Source: Aulosira sp. ZfuVER01 (lineage in GTDB: Bacteria > Cyanobacteriota > Cyanobacteriia > Cyanobacteriales > Nostocaceae). From it: DNA of 17,395 nt. Below, piece by piece: positions 292 to 17,395 of this stretch. Under the pieces are notes generated by a model. That model ran no database searches. It worked only from the letters and a program-made list of their open reading frames with translations, and was not told the origin of the DNA. Within the stretch, counting starts at the first letter, position 1. Each line of letters opens with the position of its first letter. The stretch lies in assembly GCA_034530615.2 (NCBI GenBank), contig JAVRCV020000044.1, positions 1-17,395 of the forward strand, in the 5' to 3' direction. Made by a program: the position numbers and the translations under genes.

Positions 292-2043
292 CTATACACG
301 CCGCCAAGGAGCGAAAGCATTATGTATATTGAATAAGGCAGGAGCCAAGCTAGGAAAGTGACGTTGCAGGACAGTTAACATCCCGTTGTTGTCAATCCAG
401 TCTAGACCGAATTGAGTATAGATTTCCGCGCGATAGTCTTTGGTAAAGAAGCGATCGCTCTTTAAGCGGCGGGAAGCCATTAAGATAAATACGCGAAATG
501 CTGTATCGCTAAAGCCAAAGCCTTTTGGTAGATCTTCGGCAAACATCCCTACAACTAAATCTACGCTGTTAATGTCATTGTTGTAGACTTCGCGTAGTTC
601 TTTTGCCCACACTTGATTACTTGTAATCTCTTCAAAGGATTTGACTCGACCGCGGCCAATAATTTCGCGGAAATCATTGTAGCGAGGAACACCTCTTTCG
701 CGATCGCGCAGGATATCAATCGCTGCTAAGTCGAAAGTTTCTCCGTTGTCTCGGATGAGTTGCTGTAAGGCTTTGGGGTAGTTGTGTAAGGTAATTGCAC
801 CTGGGTGGGCAATTCCGAAAGAATAAAATAGATCTGCTAATCCAATTTCTTCTACTACTCCCCTAGCGCGTTTGCCACCTACTTCAAAGAAATCGCCTTT
901 GCGTCGCAATTTACCCGTTGTGTGGGAATAAAATTCAAATTCATCGGGAATTAGGGGATGTAACCGATACACGCTGACGAATTCTTCGGTGATGTAGTAG
1001 GGCGCTGTATGGTGATCGGTTGGGGAACCAATGATTCCACTTATTGTCTCATCATCGCTGATACGTCCAAAAATCCGTTTGAAATTTTGACCAAGTAACC
1101 CCCACCAGTTAGCACTCATGGCTATTTGCAATGCTGGATGGGCGAGGATACCAGGAGTCCATTCGACGGTGTGAATTTTTGCCATCAATGCCGCGTTAAT
1201 TAGTCGCGCATGGTCAAAGAGGTCGTCATCTTGCCATTCTGGGTATTGCTGCTTGAGGCGATCGCAGATGGTGTTATGTTCTCTTACAAACAGAGTATGC
1301 AATAAACTCAACCCAATCCACCAGTTGTCATTAAACCCTGTACGCTCGATACCAATTGCTGGATCAATAGGCAATAATCCATCATCACCAATAATTAGTT
1401 TGCCATCAACGTGCGATCGCAATTGAGCGACCTGTTCGGTATTATTACCATAGATTTGTGAACCATCCCACCAATGAGTCACTTTGTTAATAAATGTTGG
1501 CGGTTCCGCGCGATCGCCTTGCGGACGGCTTTCATCTACTAAGGTTTCTTTAATTGCCATCGGTCGATGGTCTTGCGGCCAGGTATCATCCTCAGCTAAG
1601 GGAATGACAATTTTCTTATCTGGACGGTTGTCACCGTGAGAAAACCAATCATGGTTTTGAAACTGAATCCAAGCCGCCGCCAAGATATTTAAAGATGTCG
1701 CTGGGATAAATTCATCTCGCGTCATCAACTTCTGGCTAATAGTGCGGGGATTGGGGTTAAGTAGATTTTTGCGATCGACATTCGTCTTTGTTAGAGGAAC
1801 ATTCCGCCCTAAGCGAGTGCCAACCATCCCCATTTCTGGATGCTTGAGGTCGTTAAAACTACCATCTGCGGTGCGCGCTACCAGATGACGACCATCAGGG
1901 CTGGGCTGGGGGTGCGGAAGTTTTTCTGTATCTGAAAGTTGAGACGTATCGTGGAGGTTTTTTTGTCTCAGTTCTTTGCGAAACCCTGCTAGTTTTAACA
2001 ATGCTAATGGTGTAGGTAGGCGATGCCAGGGAATTCCAAACAT
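292..2043 (-). CDS. Animal-heme-peroxidase (peroxidase-cyclooxygenase) family protein, fatty-acid alpha-dioxygenase-like, 583 aa
   Basis: Motifs RTADGSFNDL, WIQFQNHDW (distal His), WWDGSQIYG, LFVREHN, KIHTVEWT, EEFVSVYRLH (catalytic Tyr and proximal His), RDRERGVPRYN and ASRRLKSDRFFT, all paralleling plant alpha-DOX motifs. Confidence 0.9.
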   Translation of the reverse strand: MFGIPWHRLPTPLALLKLAGFRKELRQKNLHDTSQLSDTEKLPHPQPSPDGRHLVARTADGSFNDLKHPEMGMVGTRLGRNVPLTKTNVDRKNLLNPNPRTISQKLMTRDEFIPATSLNILAAAWIQFQNHDWFSHGDNRPDKKIVIPLAEDDTWPQDHRPMAIKETLVDESRPQGDRAEPPTFINKVTHWWDGSQIYGNNTEQVAQLRSHVDGKLIIGDDGLLPIDPAIGIERTGFNDNWWIGLSLLHTLFVREHNTICDRLKQQYPEWQDDDLFDHARLINAALMAKIHTVEWTPGILAHPALQIAMSANWWGLLGQNFKRIFGRISDDETISGIIGSPTDHHTAPYYITEEFVSVYRLHPLIPDEFEFYSHTTGKLRRKGDFFEVGGKRARGVVEEIGLADLFYSFGIAHPGAITLHNYPKALQQLIRDNGETFDLAAIDILRDRERGVPRYNDFREIIGRGRVKSFEEITSNQVWAKELREVYNNDINSVDLVVGMFAEDLPKGFGFSDTAFRVFILMASRRLKSDRFFTKDYRAEIYTQFGLDWIDNNGMLTVLQRHFPSLAPALFNIHNAFAPWRRV

Positions 2044-2383
2044 TTTACAAATTCCTTTAGTGTGTTTTTAGACAATAATTAAGATTTTTCCGCTATTATT
2101 ACTTACACCTTAATTCCGTAATTTTATTAAGGCGTAACTATTTTTTTAGATACTGAATTCAGAAAAGATTGACCGCTCCTGAGATTTAGTAATTCTCCCA
2201 AGTGGAATTTGTACAACTCGAAATTCTAGAGTGTATCTACTCTAGTTTGTTGCATTTTGTGTAAGTCAACATTGATAGATTTATGGGGTTTTATATCTGT
2301 CACCCCTATTTCACAACTTTATGCACAATTCTATAGTTTTTTATATAAAAATCTTATCTTAGTTGTGAAAAAATTTTTAAACT

Positions 2384-2412
2384 AACCGCCAAGTACGCCA
2401 AGTAAGCCAAGG
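2384..2412. repeat. 9-bp tandem repeat (CGCCAAGTA-like, about 3 copies)
   Basis: aaccgccaagtacgccaagtaagccaagg read directly. Confidence 0.7.
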
Positions 2413-2452
2413 AAGAGACATACAAGATTTGATGAAAGTCTGAGGGATTATA

Positions 2453-2557
2453 TATAGCAATCTTATAAGAGATTTAGGAGTTCTTGGAGGGTGTAAGCAC
2501 TTATTTACAAGCTTTTTAGCTTTTGTTGTTGCTCACAAATGATTTGAAAATGCTATA
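2453..2557. mobile_element. Degenerate MITE-like element with TATAGCA...TGCTATA ends
   Basis: Left end tatagcaatcttat; right end reverse-complements to tatagcattttcaaat. Imperfect inverted termini, no ORF. Confidence 0.4.
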
Positions 2558-2795
2558 TGATAATCCGCTTTAATCTTTGAAAAAATCTGTACACTTGAAG
2601 CTTAAGTGTAGAATGGGCAATACCCCTCATATCTAGATTTTGTTAGGTATTGTCCACCCTAAGTGTATTTTTACTTCTATTGAAAAGTTGATTGATTCAA
2701 GCAGATGTTACAAAACAATAAGTTGTAAATCTCATGAAGTTAGTTGTCTTATAATACCTATCAAACTTACTCAAAGCGCCTTCAAATAACAATAT

Positions 2796-2809
2796 TACCC
2801 CTAGGGGTA
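2796..2809. promoter_or_regulatory. Perfect palindrome TACCCCTAGGGGTA, candidate operator
   Basis: 14-bp perfect palindrome with C/G tracts in an AT-rich divergent intergenic region; resembles CsoR/RcnR-family operators. Confidence 0.4.
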
Positions 2810-2888
2810 CTGTTAGATTATCAATTTGAATTCAGAATAGATTGTAGATAAAGTTTATTGCGTTAATTCGTACTCGTTATTATCAATA

Positions 2889-2912
2889 ATTTCCTAATTA
2901 GAGTTAGGAAAT
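2889..2912. promoter_or_regulatory. Inverted repeat ATTTCCTAA-N6-TTAGGAAAT upstream of the P450
   Basis: 9-bp perfect arms ending 77 bp before the P450 ATG. Confidence 0.35.
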
Positions 2913-2989
2913 CTGCTAAAAATCTTTCTCGTATTTTGTGTAATCAAATACTGTTTACTACTAAACTACTTGCATAACGCTAGGCTTAT

Positions 2990-4291
2990 ATGGACACATA
3001 TCCTTCAACAAATGTCCTTGATATCTTGCGGCTCTTAGGAAATTTGATTGGTAAATTTTTGCAGAGTCCGCGTAGCTTTAATGCCAAGGTGGTACTGACC
3101 AATTGGTTGAAAGGGTTAACTATCAACTACAAGAGCGAGAATGTCATTTTAGATTTTTTGCTAAAAAAAGTATTACTGGTATCTGGGCGTGATTTGTCAG
3201 CGCACATCCTGAAGGAAGCACCGTCGAGTCAAGGTTACATTGAGGGGACGCTGAAGAAAAAAGGGATGTCCTATCTTGCACCTGAGGCTTTAACTATTAG
3301 CCATGATGAACAATGGCAACGCTTACGCCCTTATAACGAAAAAGTGCTTTGCATAGGTGCTAAACATCATTATCAACAAGCTTTTCTCAATCAAATACAC
3401 CGTGCTTTCTCCAAGGCAGTTTCCAGCATTGCGGAGATTCGGCAATGTATGGGGATAGCAATGCTGGGTATTGTATTTGGCGAAAATGTTGCACCTTTGA
3501 GTTTAATTGAAGATATCCAAGTCTTGTTTAGCATGGTAGGCAATCCAATTAAAAGGATGCTGGTGGGAAAGCGCGAACAAGAACGACGGGCAAAATTTTA
3601 TGCTTCCTTAAGACAGCTATGGAAAGAAAGCGAACTATCTCATCAACCTTCGCTGCTGTCTATGGCACATCATCTCAAACCTGAAGCGGATGAGGAAGAG
3701 TTAATTGAGCAAATTCCCCACTGGATGTTTACGTTCACAGGATCGGGTACAGATTTGTTGGTGAGGTCTTTGGCTTTGATTAGTTCGCACCCAGAAGTTT
3801 TACAGCGAGTGCAGGATGAAATCAATCAGCAGGGTTCATTAGAGCAACCTTCAACAATTGCTCAATTAACTTACCTCGAAGCCTGCGTACTAGAAACTGG
3901 TCGCCTTTACCCTCCGGTTACACTGACGTTTCATGTTGCACCAGGTGGGGATGTTTTTGAGAACCGTCAAATTCCGCAGGGAATGGATATTCTGCACTTT
4001 TTCCCACTGATGCAACGGGATTTGGCTGCTCATCCAAGTGCTGATGTGTTTTTACCAGAAAGGTGGCTAGATGCAACTCATTCAGTTGATATTCCTGATT
4101 CCAATTTATTTTTAAAAGGTGCGCGTACCTGTCCCGGAAAAGATCTAATTCTGTTTGTATGTAAAAGTGCGATCGCAATTCTTCTAGAACAGCAAAAACT
4201 CAGAGTCAGCAGCAATCAACTTGCTCAAAAGCCTTTACCACTCTATTTTCCAGAAAAAGATATTCGCTTTCATACCCAGTTAAATCATTAA
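2990..4291 (+). CDS. Cytochrome P450 with atypical I-helix, 433 aa
   Basis: K-helix ExxR (ETGR), PERW meander and heme motif FLKGARTCPG (Cys381). The I-helix reads FTFTGSGTD instead of AGxET. Confidence 0.92.
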   Translation: MDTYPSTNVLDILRLLGNLIGKFLQSPRSFNAKVVLTNWLKGLTINYKSENVILDFLLKKVLLVSGRDLSAHILKEAPSSQGYIEGTLKKKGMSYLAPEALTISHDEQWQRLRPYNEKVLCIGAKHHYQQAFLNQIHRAFSKAVSSIAEIRQCMGIAMLGIVFGENVAPLSLIEDIQVLFSMVGNPIKRMLVGKREQERRAKFYASLRQLWKESELSHQPSLLSMAHHLKPEADEEELIEQIPHWMFTFTGSGTDLLVRSLALISSHPEVLQRVQDEINQQGSLEQPSTIAQLTYLEACVLETGRLYPPVTLTFHVAPGGDVFENRQIPQGMDILHFFPLMQRDLAAHPSADVFLPERWLDATHSVDIPDSNLFLKGARTCPGKDLILFVCKSAIAILLEQQKLRVSSNQLAQKPLPLYFPEKDIRFHTQLNH

Positions 4292-4310
4292 TTTTATGAG
4301 GTCATAAGCA

Positions 4311-4742
4311 ATGGCTATTACAACAGCAGACATGATGAATATGTCGCCTGCTGAATTGGATGAACTTTATCAAAACAGCCCAGTTGGAGAAATTCCTGAT
4401 GGACAAGGTAAGGGTACAGTTGTTTTTGTCACGGGAATTCCTATCCGCAATATCTTGTCATGGCTTGTGAGGTTGCTGGCTTGGCAAGGAAAGGTGTTTT
4501 ATCGCGATCGCGGTTTCTTACTAAACCGAATCACCATATTAGGAATGAAGTTAGTAAAAGCCAAAGTTTACCGGGGTGAAAGTTGGTTTGGTAAGGATGA
4601 AGCCATCATCCTAGACTATTCTCAAACTTCATTTATTGCGCAAAAAATTCGAGATGAAATCAGAGAAGTTTCTCCTGGTGTTTTTCTTGGTCAAGCTTAT
4701 TGGGGTAAGACGCGGGTGTTGTGTTTTGCATTGGAATTTTGA
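4311..4742 (+). CDS. Conserved hypothetical protein, 143 aa, predicted beta-rich (WQGKVF / LDYS / RDEIREV motifs)
   Basis: ATG 19 bp after the P450 stop with GAGG upstream; natural-looking composition. The motif layout is reminiscent of GXWXG/DUF4334-like barrels (recalled, not searched). Confidence 0.85.
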   Translation: MAITTADMMNMSPAELDELYQNSPVGEIPDGQGKGTVVFVTGIPIRNILSWLVRLLAWQGKVFYRDRGFLLNRITILGMKLVKAKVYRGESWFGKDEAIILDYSQTSFIAQKIRDEIREVSPGVFLGQAYWGKTRVLCFALEF

Positions 4743-5005: not shown

Positions 5006-5086
5006 TAGCTGTTCTCCAAATCGGGAACGGTTCGATAAAATTAGAGATAATGCACAGTTTTGCTACAAAGATTTAGGTGCAGGATC

Positions 5087-5701
5087 GTGGGTAGCAGACG
5101 AGTCTTTCTGTTCCACAGCTTCAGTATAATTTGGCTAGCAGGATTTTCTGCGATCGCTTGTAGTTCTGGTGGTAGTAACGATACCCAAATTCCCCTCACC
5201 CCAAGCAATAAATTAAAACCGGAGGGAAAAACTATGAAACTAGAAAGCAGTGTCTTTGAAGCTAATAGCCTTATTCCCGCTAAATATACTTGTGATGGCT
5301 CAGATATTTCCCCCAGTCTAAGCTGGGATGAACCCCCAACAGGAACCCAAAGTTTAGCATTAATTGTTGACGATCCAGATGCACCCAGACGCACATTTGT
5401 ACATTGGGTGCTTTACGATATGCCTGCGACAGTTCGGCAATTACCAGAACAAGTTGCTAGTGCAAAAACTTTACCCAGCGGTGGAGTTCAAGGAAAGAAT
5501 GATTTTGGCAAATTAGGTTATGGTGGCCCTTGTCCTCCCAGTGGTACGCATCGGTATTTTTTCACCCTTTATGCTCTAGATAAAAACTTGAGTTTGCAAC
5601 CAGGTGCAACAAAACAGCAAATTTTGCAAGCAATGAACGGTCATGTTTTAGCAACAGCAGAGTTAATCGGACGCTATCAACGTCAATTGATAGGGCGCTA
5701 A
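5087..5701 (+). CDS. YbhB/YbcL family Raf-kinase-inhibitor-like (PEBP) protein; start at GTG 5087 or ATG 5234
   Basis: Motifs KYTCDGSDISP, DPDAP, FVHWV and GYGGPCPPSGTHRYFFTLYALD. The N-terminal extension has SRRVFL and a lipobox-like AIAC. Confidence 0.93.
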   Translation: MGSRRVFLFHSFSIIWLAGFSAIACSSGGSNDTQIPLTPSNKLKPEGKTMKLESSVFEANSLIPAKYTCDGSDISPSLSWDEPPTGTQSLALIVDDPDAPRRTFVHWVLYDMPATVRQLPEQVASAKTLPSGGVQGKNDFGKLGYGGPCPPSGTHRYFFTLYALDKNLSLQPGATKQQILQAMNGHVLATAELIGRYQRQLIGR

Positions 5702-5779: not shown

Positions 5780-8700
5780 CTAAAACCTTGTTTCATACTC
5801 AACAACAGCGCGACCTTCATCTCCTAAATTAGTAGAACCGCGTACACGAACTTCGTCATTGAGACGATAAATTACGTTGTAATTTAAAGGTTCATTGCTA
5901 GCAAAAACCCGTGACAAAGAAACAGAAAAATTCCTCGATACATCAAATACCCCCTCAGCTGCTAAACCAAGTACTGAAACGTTTGTATTTCGATTAGTCA
6001 CAAGGCTAGGAAATAGCCGCAATTCACTTAAGCCAATAGTCTGACCAATTTGACTAATAGTGCCTTGCAAGTTAGAGAAAATTGCCGAACCAGCTAGGTT
6101 TACAAGTCCTAAGCCTGTATCACCTTGCTGTAAATTGTTAAGAATTGAGCCTCCGAGTAAAGCGACAATTTCTCCTCGGCTACGGCGAGGTTCGCTAGTT
6201 AGTACAAGATTTTGAGATAATTCACTGGCTGGGCCTTTTGCTATAGCCTGAATGCGAACGCTGTTTAAAGTACCGAAGTTGATTGCAGAAATATCTCGAA
6301 TCTCACTCGATACAGGTGAAGTGCGAGATAGAGTGCGAGTTGCTTCTGGGACAATTGTTACTAGGCGGACATCTAAAGTTGGGTCAAATCCCCTATTGGG
6401 AGTAAATACTGCGGTTTGGTCGTAACCACGAGCTAAGGTAAATTGAGAGGTAAATAAATTTATCTGGCCTCCCCGCAGACTAACCTTTCCTTGAGGACGA
6501 GGTTTAGCTAAGGTTCCGTTGAGCGCGATCTCACCTTGAGCTACAAAGCTAAATAGTGGTTGACTTATAACACGAACATCATTAGCTAAAACTAGCTGTA
6601 AATTGTCAAATTCTATAGGTATTTTTGGTGTATTGCTGGTTGTGGGTGTTGTTGCTGAATTAGCTGAATTAGTCGCAGTAGCTTGTTCTGGTTTAGTAAC
6701 TGTAATCACTGGAGAATTTGCTGCATCTGGTGTTTTCCCAGAAGTCCTAGACGTGCCTTGTTTTAGTGATACCTCACCATCATTCAGCTCAATTCTACCG
6801 CCGAGTTGAGGAGCAAACGCTGTGCCTGTAATCACCGCATTACCGCTAACTCCACCTTGATATAATCCTTCAAGATTCACCCTCAAGTTATCTAACGCCA
6901 CTGTGAGGGGATTAGCAGCTGCTTGTTGTTGCGCATTTTGACTGGCAAAAATCGGTAGAATTCCCGCCGCCGTTAATTGTCCGCGACTGTACTGTGCTTG
7001 AAGATTATCAACAATTAAGCGATCGCCTGCAAACCGCGCTGTCCCTGTCACATTAGTTAACGGTTCTGAAAGGCTTTGCACATTGATTGTGGCATTATTA
7101 ATTGTGGCAGTACCCGTGGTCTCTGGTCGAGCTAATGTTCCCTGTACTGCTACGTTTACTTGTCCTTGACCATCTACCCATTTAACTTGATTGTTCAGTA
7201 CGTTTAATACTGCCAAGCCTTCATCTTTAACATTAGCTTGGATGCTAATTTGATTGCTATCTGGCTGTGCGGAAGCAAAAGGTAATTTAGCAGGGACGCT
7301 ACCATTAATTTGAATTGGTTGTGTACCAGTAACTAGAACGTTACTGTCAAAATTTAATTGGGCATTATTATAGTTAAAAGCAACTTGTGCTGACTGTATA
7401 GATTGATTATTTAAGTTGCCATTTACTAGTGCTAATTCCCCAACAGCTTGGGGATTATTTAAATTCCCGCTGAGGGTGGCATTAGCATTTACATTACCTG
7501 TAATATCTACAGGTAATTGCGGAAAGAAAGGTTTAATATCTGCTAGTGCTAAATTTTGGACTTGAGCCTGTCCAGATAATGCCTTTTGGCTCAATTGTCC
7601 GTTAAAAGCTATGAGGGAATTATTGAAATTAACTTGCAGAGGTAGCAGTGTTAAATTACCGTTTTCATAATTACCACTAGCTACGATTTGGTTAATATTA
7701 TAGTTACCCCATACCCAATTATCACCTGTAAAATTAAAACCAATATTCAATCCCGATCGCAAACTTCCTGTTACTCCTAACCTACCGCTGATGATGCCTT
7801 GTAATTCTTCTAAAGTAGGTATACGGCGCGATGCTTGTTCCTGCGTTCTTTCTTGGGAAACTTGATTTTGAATTTTGGATACATAAGCTATTTGCCCTAA
7901 TAAATTAGTATCGGGCAAACTTACAGGCTGAGTTTGTAAAGCTTCAGCACCAGCTAATTTTGGAGCCTGTAAGCCAGTACGCACATCTTGAAAATTGTAA
8001 ATATTTAATGTTTGTAGTATGTTTTGAACTTTCGCTTGGTCAAAGCTAACTTCAAATTTTAAGGGATTGTTACCTGTTGTTGGTAAAATTCCACTGAGTG
8101 CATAACGGGTTTCACCTTGCAGTAATTCCCCATTATTTAAACTAAAATTCCCATTGCCATAACTGATATTACCGCGAAACTCATCCGCTTGAATTCTGCC
8201 AATTCTAGGTTGTGCTACTGCTACATTACCAACTAAACTATAATCATTTAAATTAACTGCTAAATTTCCTGATAATTTTCCGTTAATTGTGCCTAAATTT
8301 GCGTTGGCAGGAATGAAGCTTTTAGCTATAGATATAGGGAATTTTTGGACGTTAACTGTTAAAGTATCTCCAACTGTGTTACCAGTGGCGATAGTGTTAT
8401 CTCGTCTGATATTAAATGCAGTTGGACGGTTATTAGCACCTAAAGAAAAAGCAATTTGGTCTTGTCTACCAGCAACCTGAAATTGCGTTCCCTGTCCTTG
8501 CTGATAACTAACATTACCAGTTAACACAGGGTCAAATGCTAAACCGTTGACAGCCAGATTTTCTAAGCGAATATTGCCATTAGCAATGGGGGTTGTAGGC
8601 GTACCTGCTACTTGTCCGTTAAAATCTACCCTACCCGCTAAGGCAATATTACCTGGAAGCTTAACTGGCAGACTTTGCAGATTATAATTCTGTGCCTGGA

Positions 8701-11038
8701 CATTCAGATTTAATCCGGTAATTTGGGGAGTTGGTTCCAACGCCACAGCAATATTACCCGCCGCCTTTAAACCAGGTGCAGTTGCTTGGACAATTTGCAG
8801 TCCACTGCCATTCCATTGAAATTCGGCAGTTAGTGGTTGTGTGAGTGCCGCTAAACCTTGGGAAAATCTCACATTACCTGCGGCTTGAATGTTCTGCGGT
8901 TGGAAGGAAGCAGTAGTTCCCGCCGCTAGTACATCACCATTTAACCGCCCGCGTAAATTTTGTGATAAATTATTCAGTTGAACTTGGGAAATATTGGCTA
9001 AAGCTTGCCAGTTACCGTTCTTCAAATTGATATTTCTTAAGTTAACTGTTCCCTTAGCTAAACTCAACCGCGCTTCTCCAGCGGCTTGAATGTTATTTAA
9101 CGCAAAGGAATTAGTATTACCTGCAATCTGTACATTACTATTAACAATCTGTCCTTGAACATTTTTGGCAAATTGATTGAGTTGAATACCGGAAGCATTC
9201 GCTACAGCTTGCCACAAACCGTTATTGAGGCGGATATTATTGAGGTTAACTCTACCGCCAGCGACATTCAAATTCGCTTGTCCGGAGGCTTGAATGTTAG
9301 GTAGTTGGAATGATTTTGTAGTTCCCGCTAAATTGAATACACCGTTTAAAGTACCTTGAAATTGCGGTGGTAAGGTTGCGTTAGAGTTTTCTTGAGTGCG
9401 TGTAGCTTGAGCTAAACTATTGACAGGAACGCGAGAAGCATCAACAAAAGCTTGCCAGCGATCGCCTATCAGTTGTCCTCGTGCTGCAACTGTACCCCCC
9501 GCTACTTGAAATGCTGTATTTTGAATCTGGACGATTCCCTTGTTAACTGCTAATTCGACTTTACCGGGATAAGTAGCTAGAGGTGCTTGGATTTGCACTA
9601 GAGTTTGTAAATTAGCGAGAGTTCCCGAAACTTGGGTATTGGCTGAGACTGTACCAATGCGAATGTTATTTAAATTTGCATTGTAAGTCTGCGCGATCGC
9701 ATCTCCTGGTAACTTCGTCGCCTGCAAGTTTATCGCAACTTTCCCCTGCTTTCCTAAGCCAACTCGACCCTTACCAGTAATCTGTCCGCCTAAGGTTGGG
9801 GTTGCTTGAATTTGAGAAATGATAATTTGCTGGGGTGTTCCGCGAAACTGAGTGGTGATTTTCTCAAAGCTAACGCGATCGATCGCAGCAGGTTTAATGG
9901 TACTCACCGCACCTGTTAACACCGGCTGTTTAATTGCACCTTGCAACTTGATATTTGCAGTGAAGTCTCCAGCAGTTGCGATCGGTAGTTTAGCGTTAAA
10001 GGTTTGTAAAAGGTTTTGAGTGCTAACAGCTTTTACATCGGCTGTGAGGTTATAACCTGTTTGCGTATTTATCCACCCATTGATTTGTGCAGGAATGTTA
10101 CCCAAGCTTGCAGTAAAACCTTCCAGCGCAACCTGCTCACCTTGAAATTGTAGTTTACCTGTGGTATTAGTTATTTTCGTAGGAAAATTATTAATCTGTG
10201 CTACTACTTGATTAACGCCAACTGTGCCAAAAACAGTTGTTTTCGGCTGATTTCGTTGGAACTTAACGGTCAAATCGCCATCTATACTTCCAGCCTGCAA
10301 GTTTACAGGTGTCTGCACCAATTGCGTCAGATTAGGTGCGAATAAACTAGCGGTACGAACTTTGAGGGTTGTTTGTGCGGTTTTCGGAAGCGTCTCTCCA
10401 GCAATCTGTAAACTTCCTCCACTAATAGCTTGAGCGCTACCATCAAAATTAATACGTTGATTTTGCTCTAAAAAACGGGCAATCCCATTAAGTTGATTGA
10501 ACCCAACTATTACTCTCGGTTTACCTTGGGGGATATATGGTGACAAAGCAAGACCACCATTTTGCAACCGTAGTGATTCTAGTTGAGTTTGGATAAAACC
10601 TTTGCGTTCTTGAGATGCAGTATTGAGTCTAGTTGAAACCCAGCGCCCTTGTCGATCCTGTTCGATATAAACAGCAGGCTGAATTAAGGTAACATTTAGC
10701 TTTAATGTCCGGTTGAAAACTAATCGCCAAGGATCGAATCCTACGTCTACAGCTTGTGCTACCAGTCTATCGGGATCTGTGGTTGTTGGGGGAATTGATG
10801 TTGTACCAAAACGCAAACTATTGGGTGAAAAACTTTCAACTGCGCCTAAATTTACAGGTCTTCCTAGCAAATCTAACAGATTGCTTTCAATTAATGGTAC
10901 TAGTCTTTGATGAATAAAAATATTTGCCCACCAAATACCTCCCAAAATTCCAGCGATTAAAACTACTCCTAAAGCAATGCTGGTACGAGTTAATAACAGC
11001 AGCCATAAACGCCGATTAGAATCCGGAGAGCGTGTCAT
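5780..11038 (-). CDS. tamB: Translocation/assembly module TamB (AsmA-like, C-terminal DUF490), 1752 aa
   Basis: Single N-terminal TM anchor, long Gly/Asn-rich beta-strand body, and DUF490-type C-terminus (GTLAKPRPQG, FDPTLDV, LTSEP, YRLND...EYETRF). AGAGGA lies upstream of the ATG. Confidence 0.92.
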   Translation of the reverse strand: MTRSPDSNRRLWLLLLTRTSIALGVVLIAGILGGIWWANIFIHQRLVPLIESNLLDLLGRPVNLGAVESFSPNSLRFGTTSIPPTTTDPDRLVAQAVDVGFDPWRLVFNRTLKLNVTLIQPAVYIEQDRQGRWVSTRLNTASQERKGFIQTQLESLRLQNGGLALSPYIPQGKPRVIVGFNQLNGIARFLEQNQRINFDGSAQAISGGSLQIAGETLPKTAQTTLKVRTASLFAPNLTQLVQTPVNLQAGSIDGDLTVKFQRNQPKTTVFGTVGVNQVVAQINNFPTKITNTTGKLQFQGEQVALEGFTASLGNIPAQINGWINTQTGYNLTADVKAVSTQNLLQTFNAKLPIATAGDFTANIKLQGAIKQPVLTGAVSTIKPAAIDRVSFEKITTQFRGTPQQIIISQIQATPTLGGQITGKGRVGLGKQGKVAINLQATKLPGDAIAQTYNANLNNIRIGTVSANTQVSGTLANLQTLVQIQAPLATYPGKVELAVNKGIVQIQNTAFQVAGGTVAARGQLIGDRWQAFVDASRVPVNSLAQATRTQENSNATLPPQFQGTLNGVFNLAGTTKSFQLPNIQASGQANLNVAGGRVNLNNIRLNNGLWQAVANASGIQLNQFAKNVQGQIVNSNVQIAGNTNSFALNNIQAAGEARLSLAKGTVNLRNINLKNGNWQALANISQVQLNNLSQNLRGRLNGDVLAAGTTASFQPQNIQAAGNVRFSQGLAALTQPLTAEFQWNGSGLQIVQATAPGLKAAGNIAVALEPTPQITGLNLNVQAQNYNLQSLPVKLPGNIALAGRVDFNGQVAGTPTTPIANGNIRLENLAVNGLAFDPVLTGNVSYQQGQGTQFQVAGRQDQIAFSLGANNRPTAFNIRRDNTIATGNTVGDTLTVNVQKFPISIAKSFIPANANLGTINGKLSGNLAVNLNDYSLVGNVAVAQPRIGRIQADEFRGNISYGNGNFSLNNGELLQGETRYALSGILPTTGNNPLKFEVSFDQAKVQNILQTLNIYNFQDVRTGLQAPKLAGAEALQTQPVSLPDTNLLGQIAYVSKIQNQVSQERTQEQASRRIPTLEELQGIISGRLGVTGSLRSGLNIGFNFTGDNWVWGNYNINQIVASGNYENGNLTLLPLQVNFNNSLIAFNGQLSQKALSGQAQVQNLALADIKPFFPQLPVDITGNVNANATLSGNLNNPQAVGELALVNGNLNNQSIQSAQVAFNYNNAQLNFDSNVLVTGTQPIQINGSVPAKLPFASAQPDSNQISIQANVKDEGLAVLNVLNNQVKWVDGQGQVNVAVQGTLARPETTGTATINNATINVQSLSEPLTNVTGTARFAGDRLIVDNLQAQYSRGQLTAAGILPIFASQNAQQQAAANPLTVALDNLRVNLEGLYQGGVSGNAVITGTAFAPQLGGRIELNDGEVSLKQGTSRTSGKTPDAANSPVITVTKPEQATATNSANSATTPTTSNTPKIPIEFDNLQLVLANDVRVISQPLFSFVAQGEIALNGTLAKPRPQGKVSLRGGQINLFTSQFTLARGYDQTAVFTPNRGFDPTLDVRLVTIVPEATRTLSRTSPVSSEIRDISAINFGTLNSVRIQAIAKGPASELSQNLVLTSEPRRSRGEIVALLGGSILNNLQQGDTGLGLVNLAGSAIFSNLQGTISQIGQTIGLSELRLFPSLVTNRNTNVSVLGLAAEGVFDVSRNFSVSLSRVFASNEPLNYNVIYRLNDEVRVRGSTNLGDEGRAVVEYETRF

Positions 11039-11206: not shown

Positions 11207-12877
11207 TCAGGCTCCTGGTTTAAAATAATCGAGGAGGCGATCGCCAGAATCTGCACGAATTAATGCCACAACTACATCGGGTAAAGCTGTCAAACTAGGG
11301 TAAACCAGATAGCGAGGTTCCCAATGGGGGCGAAACTTTTCTTTATAGGCGTGTAAGCCTTTAAAGTTGTAGAAGCGATTTAAATGTTCGTAAAGATAGC
11401 CTAATACTCTCTCCAAACGGCGCGATTCTGGGGTTTCACCAACTCCCGCCAGTGCAGAAAGCGCAAAATTAAAGCTATCGTAGTTTTTTTCCTTAAAGTA
11501 CTGAAGCATGGAAGCAAATAAAACATCCATTGTCCCATTCTCCATCAATGGACGATGCCGCATCATATCGAGAGTTACTTCATTAAGTTGATATTCTGGC
11601 ACAATATTGGCAAAAGCTTTGATTTTTCCTTCAGGATCGTAAACGACAGCAATTACACATTCCCGCAGGTAAGCTTCGTCAAACCAACCTAGAGAAAACT
11701 TTTTTTCTGAACCTTGCACCATTCTCAACCATTCATCACTCACAGGTTTTAGCTGACGCAACAATTCATCACTAATTGGTGGCTGGTAAAACTTGACTTC
11801 ATATCCTAGTTTCGTCAATTTATTGATAGCAGGTCGAAAGTTTTTCCCAGCTTTGCCTTGTAAAGTAAAATTTTTCAGGTCAACGATCGCTTCTTCCCCA
11901 ATCTTCAGTACCCTAAAACCTAGAGATATGTAGATGTCCAAATCGTCTGGCAAAGTTTGGTAAAAAGCCGGATACCAATCGTTACGCTGACAGAACTGCC
12001 CAAAGCCAATGATAACCTCTTTGCGGTCTTCTATCGGCCCAATCGGATCTCCTAAGGCGATCGCACCTCGTCCTTTGGGAACATAGGCGATCGTACTCCG
12101 ACCAGAAGGACTAAAATAATAACTTTTATCATTTAATAGCGTATAAGCTGCTAAAGAAGACTTCCCATACTTTTCGACAATTTCCTTGGCTTTTTTTCGC
12201 TCATTTGCTGTAGCGGGATTACGTAAAAAAACTGGTTGCAACAGCATGACAAAGGCATAAGTAAAGGTACAAGCTGCAATTACATAAATAGAATCAGCAA
12301 AAAAGTTACCAAACCTAGTTTTTGGTTGCAGTCCAGCATTATCTTCTGTAAGGAACATTGCTAAAGTTTGAACTACTGCTGCACCCCAATCAAAATTTAC
12401 CGAAAATTTGCCATCTAGAAGGTAAAAGCCAATTGTTCCATAAGCTAAAGTAAACAGCAAAGCACCAAATAATACCCGGACTCCTCGTGCAATTGAAGGA
12501 CGGTCTGATTGTGCTGTAAACAAATGGCGCATCCACATTAATTGCAGTAGCAAAATACCTGAAAGTATACTTTCTTCATAGTCCCAACCCTTCAGCAAAT
12601 GGCTAATAATCGAAATTACTAATAAACCAACTGTCAGCACCCAAGCAACTCGTTTTCGCCGCAATAAATTAGTTGCCAATGCTAGTAAAGCGAACCCAGC
12701 TAAAGCCGCAAATATATGACCGCTGGCACGAATTTCAAATGGTAAAAACTGCTTGAGCCAGTGATTGCGTTCGGGTAGAGTAGGAGTCACGGCTGAGATT
12801 AAATTTACCACTCCTACCAAAGCCGTCAGCAAAGCTGCACTTTTAAGTCCAATCTGAGTTTTTAATTGAGAATTCAT
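11207..12877 (-). CDS. Phosphatidylglycerol lysyltransferase-domain (DUF2156) protein, MprF synthase-like, lacking the flippase domain, 556 aa
   Basis: About 6 N-terminal TM segments, then DKSYYFS, ALGDPIGP, KIGEEAIVDL, EKKFSLG, LDMMR, NGTMD and FYNFKGLHAYKEKFRPHWEPRYL. Confidence 0.92.
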   Translation of the reverse strand: MNSQLKTQIGLKSAALLTALVGVVNLISAVTPTLPERNHWLKQFLPFEIRASGHIFAALAGFALLALATNLLRRKRVAWVLTVGLLVISIISHLLKGWDYEESILSGILLLQLMWMRHLFTAQSDRPSIARGVRVLFGALLFTLAYGTIGFYLLDGKFSVNFDWGAAVVQTLAMFLTEDNAGLQPKTRFGNFFADSIYVIAACTFTYAFVMLLQPVFLRNPATANERKKAKEIVEKYGKSSLAAYTLLNDKSYYFSPSGRSTIAYVPKGRGAIALGDPIGPIEDRKEVIIGFGQFCQRNDWYPAFYQTLPDDLDIYISLGFRVLKIGEEAIVDLKNFTLQGKAGKNFRPAINKLTKLGYEVKFYQPPISDELLRQLKPVSDEWLRMVQGSEKKFSLGWFDEAYLRECVIAVVYDPEGKIKAFANIVPEYQLNEVTLDMMRHRPLMENGTMDVLFASMLQYFKEKNYDSFNFALSALAGVGETPESRRLERVLGYLYEHLNRFYNFKGLHAYKEKFRPHWEPRYLVYPSLTALPDVVVALIRADSGDRLLDYFKPGA

Positions 12878-12929
12878 CTGTTATTAACGATCGGCGTTTA
12901 GTTACAAAATATTATTAATAGTATTTGAC

Positions 12930-13838
12930 TTAAATTTTTAATTTTGAATTACTAAACTGTTTTCCTACATAGGAAAGTGAATCTTTGAGGTGTTTATGAA
13001 AGTAGTTCCAACCCACATCAGCACCAGATAAACCATGCCCTCCTGGAAACGCATAAAATACATGAGCAACACCTAATTTATTTAAGGTTTCATTAAAAGA
13101 TTTTGTAGAAGCAAGTAAATTACTATCGTTAATTCCGGCATCAAGGTATACACGCAATCGCTTTCTGTCTTGAATTGATAACTGTTGTACAATCTGTTGA
13201 GGGCTATTTTGCGGGCCGCTTTTATCTGTAAAATAACCGCTATGACTAAAGAAAACATTGAAGTTATTCAGATGGCGTAACCCAATATTCAATGCACCCC
13301 ATCCTCCAGAAGATACACCTCCTATTGCCCAAAATTGTGGGTTATCCAAGGTGCGGTAGTGGGACTTCACTACGTTGACTAATTCCGAACCTATCCAAGT
13401 ACCTACTTTACCATTAGGGCCATCAAAATAATCGGGATCGTACAAAGGGCTAGAACCTCGATTATCATTGCCATCTGGTGTAATTAAAATTGATGGTGGC
13501 AATTGTTTACTTTGATAAAGTTCGTGCAATATATTCAATAGTGCATATTTGTCAGCATAAGCACGAGCATCGTCATGGCCGCCGTGCAATAAAAATATCA
13601 CCGGATAACGCTTTTGGGGATTTTTATGATAGCCAGGAGGTAAAATTACCCCATAGTTACGGACTGCTCCCATTGCTTGAGAGTTAAAACTTTCTACCTG
13701 AAAACTCAGCCCTGTATTAGCTTGCTCTTCGGGTCGGTCTAATTGTGGCGCACCTAAAATAAACACGTAGTAGTAACCAGCAGCAGTTAAGACAGCGATC
13801 GCTCCTGCCAAACTAATTACAACTTTAGAAATTCTCAT
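12930..13838 (-). CDS. Alpha/beta-hydrolase (putative esterase family) with N-terminal membrane anchor or signal, 302 aa
   Basis: YPVIFLLHGG, nucleophile elbow GVSSGG, LDAGIND and PGGH; hydrophobic residues 6-28. Confidence 0.9.
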   Translation of the reverse strand: MRISKVVISLAGAIAVLTAAGYYYVFILGAPQLDRPEEQANTGLSFQVESFNSQAMGAVRNYGVILPPGYHKNPQKRYPVIFLLHGGHDDARAYADKYALLNILHELYQSKQLPPSILITPDGNDNRGSSPLYDPDYFDGPNGKVGTWIGSELVNVVKSHYRTLDNPQFWAIGGVSSGGWGALNIGLRHLNNFNVFFSHSGYFTDKSGPQNSPQQIVQQLSIQDRKRLRVYLDAGINDSNLLASTKSFNETLNKLGVAHVFYAFPGGHGLSGADVGWNYFHKHLKDSLSYVGKQFSNSKLKI

Positions 13839-13919
13839 ATTTATTTAGTGCTTTATCAATAACATCTCACAATATTTAACTATAATTAATATTTTTTAAA
13901 TAAGCAATATATAGTATTT

Positions 13920-13943
13920 GTAGGGTGGGCAATGTCCACCCCA
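13920..13943. repeat. GTAGGGTGGGCAATG(C/T)CCACC palindromic dispersed repeat
   Basis: Hairpin with a GTAG head. A related copy lies at 15653-15672, with degenerate ones near 45-65 and 2608-2660. Confidence 0.7.
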
Positions 13944-13957
13944 TGCAGATGATAAAG

Positions 13958-14929
13958 TTAATTATTTGGAGTACTTTTAGCTCGCTCCAAGCTTAAATTA
14001 TCAGCAGCGTGCGCTATCTGTGATATGCGAAATTGTTCGCCTACAAAAGTTAAAGAATCTGCCAGATGTTCGCGCCAGTATTCCCAAGTGTGACTGCCAG
14101 GAAATTGATGAAATATATTATATATTTTTAGTTGGTTGAGCACTCGAGTAAACTGTTTAGCTTCATCGAGTTCTTCCGTATCTGAAGCACCAGAATCTAA
14201 ATAAATCTTCAATCTTTTTTTAGGTTGTGGCGAAATATTTTTGATATAAATTATCGGACTATTTTGCGGGCCGCTTTTATCTTTAAAATAACCACTATGA
14301 CTAAACAAAATTGAGAAGCGAGGTAAGTTATGTAATCCTACATTGATTGCACCCCAACCACCAGATGACAGTCCACCCATAGCCCAAAAATCAGGATTGG
14401 ATAGTGTCCGATAGCGGCTTTTAACCACTTTTACTAATTCATCACCAACGGCGGTAGATACATTACCTTGCGGCCCATCGATATATTGAGGGTCCCAATA
14501 AGGACTAGTACCACGTTTGTCGTTACCGTCAGGAGTAATGATAATACTAGGCGGTAACTTGTTAGTAGCATAAAGCTTTTCTAAGGTCTTGAGAGCCTGT
14601 CCTTTCTTTTGATCGAACCAAGAATTAGGATCGCCGTGTCCACCATGAAGCAGAAAAATTACAGGATAGCGTTGTTGGGTATGTTGCTCATAGCCAGGAG
14701 GTAAAGAAATTCCATAAGTGCGCTTTCCTCCCATCACTTTGCTATCGTAAGTTTCTAATTTGTAAGTGAGTGGTTTAGCTAATTCATTAGTATTGGGCTG
14801 TGGCGGTAAGATTGAAATAGTTGGCTGTAATTGTTGAGCTGGCTGTGCGGCTACATCTTGAGAGTAACGACAACTTATGAGCGTAAGTAGGGAAACTAGT
14901 AGTAAAATTTGAGATGGTTTATACTGCAT
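13958..14929 (-). CDS. Alpha/beta-hydrolase (putative esterase family), predicted lipoprotein, 323 aa
   Basis: Signal peptide ending LISC; YPVIFLLHGG, GLSSGG, LDSGASD and PGSHTW. Clear paralog of the downstream esterase. Confidence 0.9.
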   Translation of the reverse strand: MQYKPSQILLLVSLLTLISCRYSQDVAAQPAQQLQPTISILPPQPNTNELAKPLTYKLETYDSKVMGGKRTYGISLPPGYEQHTQQRYPVIFLLHGGHGDPNSWFDQKKGQALKTLEKLYATNKLPPSIIITPDGNDKRGTSPYWDPQYIDGPQGNVSTAVGDELVKVVKSRYRTLSNPDFWAMGGLSSGGWGAINVGLHNLPRFSILFSHSGYFKDKSGPQNSPIIYIKNISPQPKKRLKIYLDSGASDTEELDEAKQFTRVLNQLKIYNIFHQFPGSHTWEYWREHLADSLTFVGEQFRISQIAHAADNLSLERAKSTPNN

Positions 14930-16508: not shown

Positions 16509-16741
16509 TCAACTCGTTCATTGTGAATGAGATCTCGTTCTGTATGAATGAGTACTCGTTGATAAAGAACCTCAACTCGTTCGTTGTGAATGAGATCTCG
16601 TTCTGTATGAATGAGTACTCGTTGATAGAGAACCTCAACTCGTTCGTTATGAATGAGATCTCGTTCTGTATGAATGAGTACTCGTTGATAAAGAACCTCA
16701 ACCCGTTCGTTATGAATGAGATCTCGTTCTCTATGGATGAG
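16509..16741. repeat. 63-bp tandem repeat, about 3.7 copies, built from three 21-bp subunits
   Basis: Units start at 16509, 16572, 16635 and 16698. CTCGTT recurs every 21 bp, and there are few differences between full units. Confidence 0.97.
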
Positions 16742-16976: not shown

Positions 16977-17393
16977 TTACTTCCACCATCGTGCTACATC
17001 TACAATGGCACGGGCAACTTCTGCCGTTGCAACTTCACCACCTAATGCAAAGATAACTGGAAACAATGCTTGAATATCAGACAGCAAATTAGGACGAGTG
17101 CGAAGGGATAGCTGATGAAGTGTATCTCGCCAAAGGGGGAAAAGTTTGGCAGATGGCATTTGTGGCAGTTTCTCTGCTAAAGCTCTCAAGGCATCGGCGC
17201 GATAATACTCATTCTGAATCGAGTGGGCAGTGATGAGTGCTTCTGGTAATACCTCAGGCAGTTTCTGAGCTAAGGCACTCAAGGCAGGGGCGCGATAACT
17301 CTCATCCTGAATCGAGCGGGCGGCGGTGAGTGCTTCTGGTAATACCTCAGGCAGTTTCTGAGCTAAGGCACTCAAGGCATCGGCGCGATATCT
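16977..17393 (-). CDS. 3' end (partial) of a 31-aa helical-repeat protein, possibly the C-terminal sensor of an NB-ARC/NACHT-type protein
   Basis: The frame stays open to the window edge. Repeats YRADALSALAQKLPEVLPEALTAARSIQDE have a 93-bp DNA period, followed by a capping region ending VDVARWWK. Confidence 0.8.
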   Translation of the reverse strand, partial: RYRADALSALAQKLPEVLPEALTAARSIQDESYRAPALSALAQKLPEVLPEALITAHSIQNEYYRADALRALAEKLPQMPSAKLFPLWRDTLHQLSLRTRPNLLSDIQALFPVIFALGGEVATAEVARAIVDVARWWK

Positions 17394-17395
17394 CT

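Follow-up and report, generated by a model that had tools for sequence, protein, structure and literature searches.

The P450 gene opposite a fatty-acid alpha-dioxygenase gene in Aulosira sp. ZfuVER01, a conserved neighbour that is exchanged within the genus

What does a cytochrome P450 do opposite the gene of a fatty-acid alpha-dioxygenase (alpha-DOX, or DOX), and is the partner of the dioxygenase always the same? The question is raised by contig JAVRCV020000044.1 of the cyanobacterium Aulosira sp. ZfuVER01 (assembly GCA_034530615.2), in which the two genes diverge and a small beta-barrel protein is encoded just behind the P450. This whole contig (17,395 nucleotides of an 8.0-Mb genome) is called the window below. 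Surveys of other genomes revealed that the P450 is a regular neighbour of alpha-DOX. Within the genus an unrelated gene can stand in its place, and this exchange is what the window adds. On balance, the P450 probably consumes the 2-hydroperoxide of the dioxygenase without a reductase, before an aldehyde forms. The features of the locus are as follows.

292..2043, minus strand: alpha-DOX gene, 583 amino acids (aa), with a PF03098 match and conserved residues
2044..2989, no strand: divergent intergenic region, 946 bp, AT-rich, no match in Rfam
2683..2856, plus strand: conserved upstream element, likely the promoter region, 68-73% identity among relatives
2990..4291, plus strand: cytochrome P450 of the CYP1719 group, 433 aa, with heme loop, ExxR and an altered I-helix
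4292..4310, plus strand: 19-bp spacer with a ribosome-binding-like GAGGT at 4298-4302
4311..4742, plus strand: 143-aa orphan lipocalin-like beta-barrel of 8 strands, by fold and invariant polar residues

These three open reading frames, with the 946-bp and 19-bp gaps between them, had been described in an earlier sequence-only reading, and the layout was confirmed. Each of the three genes has one copy in the genome (tblastn, family level), PF03098 has a single match in the whole genome, and the closest named relatives of the window proteins come from Calothrix and Tolypothrix.

The dioxygenase and its P450 neighbour

Cyanobacterial alpha-dioxygenases are in use as biocatalysts for making aldehydes. 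By its residues the 583-aa protein is a fatty-acid alpha-dioxygenase, since all the defining ones are kept, and the enzyme itself is ordinary. It matches rice alpha-DOX at E 1.8e-120 and cyclooxygenases at 1e-15. The heme and radical residues are distal His131, catalytic Tyr359 and proximal His362 (rice H157, Y379, H382), the carboxylate and alpha-carbon site is formed by His291, Thr296 and Arg526 (rice H311, T316, R559), and Phe355 is also kept; the functions of these residues are as named in PMC8720084. CalDOX, LepDOX, CsDOX and the rice (4KVJ) and Arabidopsis (4HHR) enzymes have the same ligands to the heme, the same catalytic Tyr and the same residues at the carboxylate site, and the numbering of CalDOX (His131/His361/Tyr358) is almost equal. 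Unlike the paired dioxygenase of the window, these enzymes have been studied singly as aldehyde producers, and neither "P450" nor "gene cluster" occurs in PMC8720084. Alpha-DOX forms an unstable 2R-hydroperoxy acid that gives the Cn-1 aldehyde by decarboxylation, or a 2-hydroxy acid (PMC9305512). From its characterised relatives, the window enzyme would alpha-oxygenate acids of roughly C10-C18.

A scan of species-representative genomes for the P450 gave 63 loci, many of them kin, from about nine phyla (Cyanobacteriota, Chloroflexota, Gemmatimonadota, Pseudomonadota, Actinomycetota, Acidobacteriota, Verrucomicrobiota and others). A DOX-family gene lies within 5 kb of the P450 in 59 of them, the barrel gene is present in 33 and all three genes in 30; the four loci without DOX are cut by contig ends, with at most 272 bases upstream. 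DOX is found up- or downstream of the P450 on either strand, in six arrangements, and at no more than 600 bp in 52 of the 59 loci. For 42 DOX-P450 pairs, which as kin are not independent, the trees of the two proteins have 12 well-supported splits in common, and their distances correlate at 0.39 against a permutation maximum of 0.20. A DOX-P450 fusion was found neither in the 63 loci nor among long proteins, which is weak evidence. The sequence-only reading had named conservation of the three families across genomes, fusions included, as its check; the result is a conserved DOX-P450 pair, accompanied by the barrel in about half of the loci.

The partner dioxygenases of these loci have forms of about 585, 790 (TPR-bearing) and 950 aa, and equivalents of His311, Tyr379, His382 and Arg559 are present in all full-length ones aligned. 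A divergent clade of 935-965-aa alpha-DOX-like proteins occurs in L035, L037, L042 and L060, where Tyr and His are kept and Thr-Arg replaces Arg-Arg.

Other genes recur around the 63 loci, according to our own gene calls and Pfam: a RoxA-like dihaem cytochrome (32 loci), an orphan F5 (18), a catalase-like protein F6 (16), a Dyp-like peroxidase (15), a small membrane protein (12), a GMC oxidase (5), and the lipid genes patatin, Tle1-like phospholipase and lipoxygenase-like (4 each). The Thr-His distal motif is matched in 10 of the 16 F6 proteins, and F6 has a weak match to coral allene oxide synthase (E 0.12). At L057:11383-12531 and 15 more loci, F6 stands in a block with the Dyp-like peroxidase and F5.

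One slot, several genes

Among 15 genomes of the genus, DOX was found in 14, the P450 in 4, the barrel in 8, and in 8 a gene called K6 beside alpha-DOX. K6 encodes a 300-aa protein with a terminal FxFGxGxxxRxC motif and without ExxR (L069:10805-11701, plus strand). P450 and K6 occur together in none of these genomes; the chance of zero overlap would be 0.015 if the genomes were independent, which they are not. All eight barrel-bearing genomes have the order DOX, divergent gap, partner, barrel, where the partner is P450 in four and K6 in four. In G696 and G698 the small proteins are identical, the dioxygenases are 96% identical, and the middle genes differ. G696, with P450, and G694, with K6, are 93% identical up to a point some 115 bp ahead of the P450 start, and 97% identical again from the P450 stop codon onwards. 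The upstream element at 2683..2856 is retained before whichever slot gene is present, the mini-P450-like K6 included, and on a quick DOX tree the P450 and K6 loci are intermixed.

There is a third type of partner. K2 is an orphan of 310 aa in which His82, Arg113 and Lys132 are invariant (L079:9630-10565, plus strand), has 2039 relatives at E 0.001, and occupies the slot in the same layout on two metagenome contigs (L123 and L124). A survey from the DOX side gave 47 match rows in a sample of the cyanobacterial order, from which 40 loci were taken after the window itself and six contig-edge or frameshifted fragments had been set aside. In these 40 loci K2 is the commonest neighbour (15), followed by K6 (9, plus one fusion), the P450 (6) and a catalase-DOX fusion (1), and never two of them are found at one locus. 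Fusion to DOX is known for K6 (L107:8453-11212, minus strand), for K2 (database proteins P0256 and P0266) and for a catalase-like domain (L106). In Actinomycetota, 17 match rows (the tally includes two unpublished genomes) gave 14 loci; three of them have, respectively, a distant P450 relative five bases downstream, a catalase-like gene, and a Dyp/F5/F6/barrel block. Similar 240-255-aa genes flank alpha-DOX in the actinomycetotal loci L163, L164, L166, L170 and L171, and the one scanned (L170:10089-10832) encodes a metallo-beta-lactamase-fold protein.

The barrel is less tied to the P450 than its position suggests. It directly follows the P450 in 26 of the 33 loci that have it and is missing at 30 of the 63 P450 loci; at some metagenome loci it follows other partners or stands alone. 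The neighbours at 43 metagenome barrel loci, many of them on short contigs, are catalase-like (19), DOX (16), P450 (11) and RoxA-like (10) genes. Because of these mixed neighbours, the barrel is regarded as an optional accessory of a wider heme-enzyme cluster, not of this P450. In three loci (L031:11241-13292, L033:10963-13140 and L009:11903-14044) the barrel shares one reading frame with the RoxA-like cytochrome. Its fold is lipocalin-like with eight strands, and W58, K61, N72, S91, D102, Y103, S107, R114, E116 and R118 are invariant in 75 of 75 diverse homologues. In comparison with Tcur_1030/4MVE, GXWXG/DUF4334 proteins, lipocalins and fatty-acid-binding proteins (FABPs), the best structural match is 4MVE (Tcur_1030) at 18% identity. 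The barrel has no Pfam match at all, and for PF14231/PF14232 (GXWXG/DUF4334) there is only a language-model lead of 0.87. Of the "cyclase or carrier" that the sequence-only reading had seen in this protein, a carrier is compatible with the lipocalin-like barrel and cyclase chemistry is unlikely.

RoxA-like, Dyp, F5, F6, K2 and K6 genes were not found in the genome of the window, so that the window represents a minimal three-gene version of the cluster. A tentative extension would take all the partners together as alternative alleles in an exchangeable "second enzyme" slot of bacterial alpha-DOX: reductase-free CYP1719, a 300-residue minimal P450 and catalase-like proteins would steer the 2-hydroperoxy acid to different stable oxylipins and be swapped by recombination in the conserved flanks, with the barrel as a catalyst on the product, not a carrier. 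As a whole this is possible, with the balance somewhat against it.

Possible chemistry and competing explanations

The window protein has the fold of the P450 superfamily, its ExxR (residues 302-305) and its FxxGxRxCxG thiolate loop, with Cys381 in the canonical pocket FLKGARTCPG; in its family the pocket is canonical in 178 of 181 sequences and the ExxR pattern is present in 164 of 181. What departs from convention is the I-helix, PHWMFTFTGS, which has TFTGS where AGxET is expected, so that Thr-Phe replaces Ala-Gly, Gly251 stands at the acid position and Ser252 at the Thr position. Throughout the 178 family sequences with the motif there is no Asp or Glu at the acid position, and Ser is at the Thr position in every one. 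The monooxygenase motif (A/G)Gx(D/E)T is thus absent from the window P450, while AG-x-(D/E)-T is conserved in seven of the eight other P450s of the genome and no motif of this kind is seen in the eighth. The nine-residue insertion in the heme-binding loop that marks CYP74 (PMC10813956) is also absent. Substrate-side residues G86, K89, LAP96-98 and Q241-P-H-W245 are invariant.

The same PHWMFTFTGSGTDLL motif is found in CYP1719A2 of Moorea producens (AOX02516.1), which is named in the supplement of PMC7014017. Membership of CYP1719, at a threshold of more than 40% identity, is supported indirectly: the window P450 is 66-67% identical to Moorena homologues L001-L005, which match CYP1719A2 by eye. 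Nothing relevant was found in the literature on "CYP1719", and CYP1719A2 is known by name alone.

In the proposed mechanism, alpha-DOX is predicted to convert free fatty acids to 2-hydroperoxy acids, which the P450 would take up directly, without a reductase, before they decay to the one-carbon-shorter aldehyde. The step at the heme would be cleavage of the O-O bond of the 2-hydroperoxide. A 2-hydroxy acid is the expected product. The second oxygen would pass to the same chain, giving a diol or an epoxide, or else to a co-substrate, for which fungal diol synthases and the alpha-DOX1/caleosin pair of plants are the models. A 2-oxo acid or a catalysed cleavage could be other outcomes, and the small barrel would bind the lipid. 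Two folds are known to act on hydroperoxides of fatty acids and transform them, that of the P450s and that of the catalase relatives (PMC13049297; PMC10813956). Since unrelated heme-type folds alternate beside alpha-DOX, and K6, K2 and catalase-like proteins are sometimes fused to it, reductase-free O-O cleavage would be the simplest task for them to share.

Several points weigh against this interpretation. The resemblance of K6 to P450s is limited to its Cys motif and to language-model features (0.95, 151 of 256 features), K6 has no profile similarity to the window P450, and K2 resembles catalase by motif only. The tree of DOX and that of the P450 are congruent near the tips but not in the deep branches, and in the window the two genes are divergent, without a common operon. 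No recognised partner accompanies DOX in 7 of the 40 cyanobacterial loci (one more is ambiguous) or in 11 of the 14 actinomycetotal ones, and by eye the slot lacks a partner in 2 of the 14 DOX-bearing genomes of the genus, one of which has a transposase-like gene there. With the P450 near DOX in 59 of 63 loci and DOX often alone, the P450 would need DOX, and DOX would have no need of the P450. The axial Asn of CYP74, prostacyclin synthase (PGIS) and diol synthases is replaced by Ser252, although the distal axial Asn is not universal among self-sufficient P450s. In favour of the interpretation, Gly precedes the axial residue in prostacyclin synthase, too, and fungal 8R/9R allene oxide synthases (AOS) have a hydroxyl residue at this position (PMC13049297). 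Against it again, WxxxR, ExxR and the Cys pocket (178 of 181) would fit a reductase-fed enzyme, as would a Ser in the place of the Thr; a distant P450 relative beside DOX in L162 seems to keep the Asp-Thr pair, the genome has 11 Fer2 matches, and an OYE-type FMN reductase with an Fe-S motif, a potential electron source, is encoded in 20 of the 63 loci.

These last points belong to an explanation that remains serious, although we consider it rather unlikely: the P450 may be a monooxygenase that takes the aldehyde from DOX as its substrate or prepares the substrate for DOX, in alpha-oxidation or in breakdown of branched or isoprenoid lipids, with electrons from housekeeping ferredoxin and FNR or, where present, from the Fe-S flavoenzyme. 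The acid residue gone in 178 of 178 sequences and the Ala-Gly groove turned into Thr-Phe speak against it, as do the filling of the same slot by a 300-aa protein without ExxR and by non-P450 genes, the lack of RoxA-like, Dyp and catalase-like cluster genes in the genome of the window, and the lack of a ferredoxin motif among 768 called genes of the 63 loci (searched by regular expression only). The ferredoxin missing from the window itself, an argument of the sequence-only reading, is uninformative, since no P450 of this genome shares a contig with a ferredoxin. A slot gene that merely tunes DOX, either by binding heme or by setting the peroxide level and so activating or protecting the tyrosyl radical, and makes no new lipid, would suit the turns taken by unrelated proteins and the Dyp-like (15/63), catalase-like (16/63) and dihaem cytochrome (32/63) genes of the wider clusters, and alpha-DOX requires oxidation of its heme by a peroxide to start (PMC13049297). 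The invariant substrate-side signature of the P450 suggests a specific substrate, and tuning is accordingly judged improbable.

The CYP74/allene oxide cyclase analogy of the sequence-only reading fares worse. A P450 acting as allene oxide synthase and a barrel acting as allene oxide cyclase would yield a cyclopentenone oxylipin; the eight strands of the barrel with their possibly catalytic polar residues, the OYE-type reductases in 20 loci and the lipoxygenase-like gene in 4 fit such a route. The P450 lacks the CYP74 insertion, and barrel and OYE genes meet at only one of the 63 P450 loci (L003). CYP74 chemistry proceeds via an epoxyallylic radical (PMC10813956), which the 2-hydroperoxide of an ordinary fatty acid should be unable to form: the peroxide at C2 is not allylic, so that allene oxide and cyclase chemistry become unlikely. 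The plant-like route is therefore very improbable, and a reaction like that of a peroxygenase or a diol synthase has the better chance, on the model of Arabidopsis alpha-DOX1 with caleosin (PMC13543774). Least credible of all is that DOX and P450 are unrelated neighbours. Divergence across 946 bp, which permits no shared transcript in the window, would allow it, but the two are paired at 59 of 63 loci, in six arrangements and about nine phyla, while alpha-DOX as such occurs in 1-10% of genomes. What survives of the earlier proposal is thus a dioxygenase paired with a probably peroxide-using P450, given the conserved pair and the loss of the usual O2-activation motif. Its fixed three-enzyme pathway does not hold, with the barrel missing at 30 of 63 P450 loci and found elsewhere with other partners or alone, and with the P450 exchangeable.

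Surroundings, precedents and meaning

At 2100-2140, 57-97 bp upstream of the DOX start, lies an inverted repeat whose 15-bp arms are separated by 11 bp, possibly an operator, possibly a chance occurrence. In relatives, a neighbouring gene encodes 270-290 aa, and its end is matched at 84-94% by positions 120-264, just past the DOX stop; in the window, the gene pair found behind DOX in those relatives seems to be truncated or lost. Beyond the barrel are a PEBP-family gene (5060-5701, plus strand), which is apart from the locus in G692, a TamB gene of 1752 aa (5780-11038, minus strand) and a phosphatidylglycerol lysyltransferase-like gene (11207-14929, minus strand) preceded by two PF00756 esterases. 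Tandem arrays are present at 16509-16741 (63-bp period, 3.7 copies) and at 17164-17395 (93-bp period, 2.5 copies), the latter inside an open reading frame cut by the contig end.

A dioxygenase with a hydroperoxide-transforming partner is an already known arrangement. Fungal DOX-CYP fusions (linoleate diol, epoxy alcohol and allene oxide synthases) likewise combine a tyrosyl-radical heme dioxygenase with a P450, from whose I-helix the usual motif is missing as in the window P450 (PMC13049297). They are one polypeptide with an 8/9/10-DOX, in contrast to the separate divergent genes and the alpha-DOX (C2) of the window, and their Cys pocket has HxC where the window P450 has RxC and no axial Asn. 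In Nostoc punctiforme, a 10S-DOX is likewise matched with a separate heme enzyme, a catalase-related hydroperoxide lyase (PMC13049297); there the dioxygenase is COX-like and the partner catalase-related, whereas the window has alpha-DOX and P450. Arabidopsis alpha-DOX1 together with the caleosin CLO3 leads to the antifungal 2-hydroxy acid 2-HOT (PMC13543774), a precedent for alpha-DOX with a partner, although caleosin is unrelated to P450 and no genomic linkage is implied. The literature, searched mostly at title and abstract level, yielded no description of an alpha-DOX that has its own P450 family and an exchangeable slot.

The partner conserved across phyla suggests that the aldehyde may be just the default decay product of these dioxygenases. 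Through the swap within the genus, one and the same dioxygenase can readily be compared beside two alternative, unrelated partners. If the proposed mechanism is true, it would add a reductase-independent P450 family and a heme enzyme whose substrates are 2-hydroperoxy acids, and would give the orphan barrel family its first function. If the slot is indeed as tentatively drawn above, it would provide the first bacterial enzymology on non-allylic 2-hydroperoxides and, as a new source, lipid signals that differ from strain to strain.

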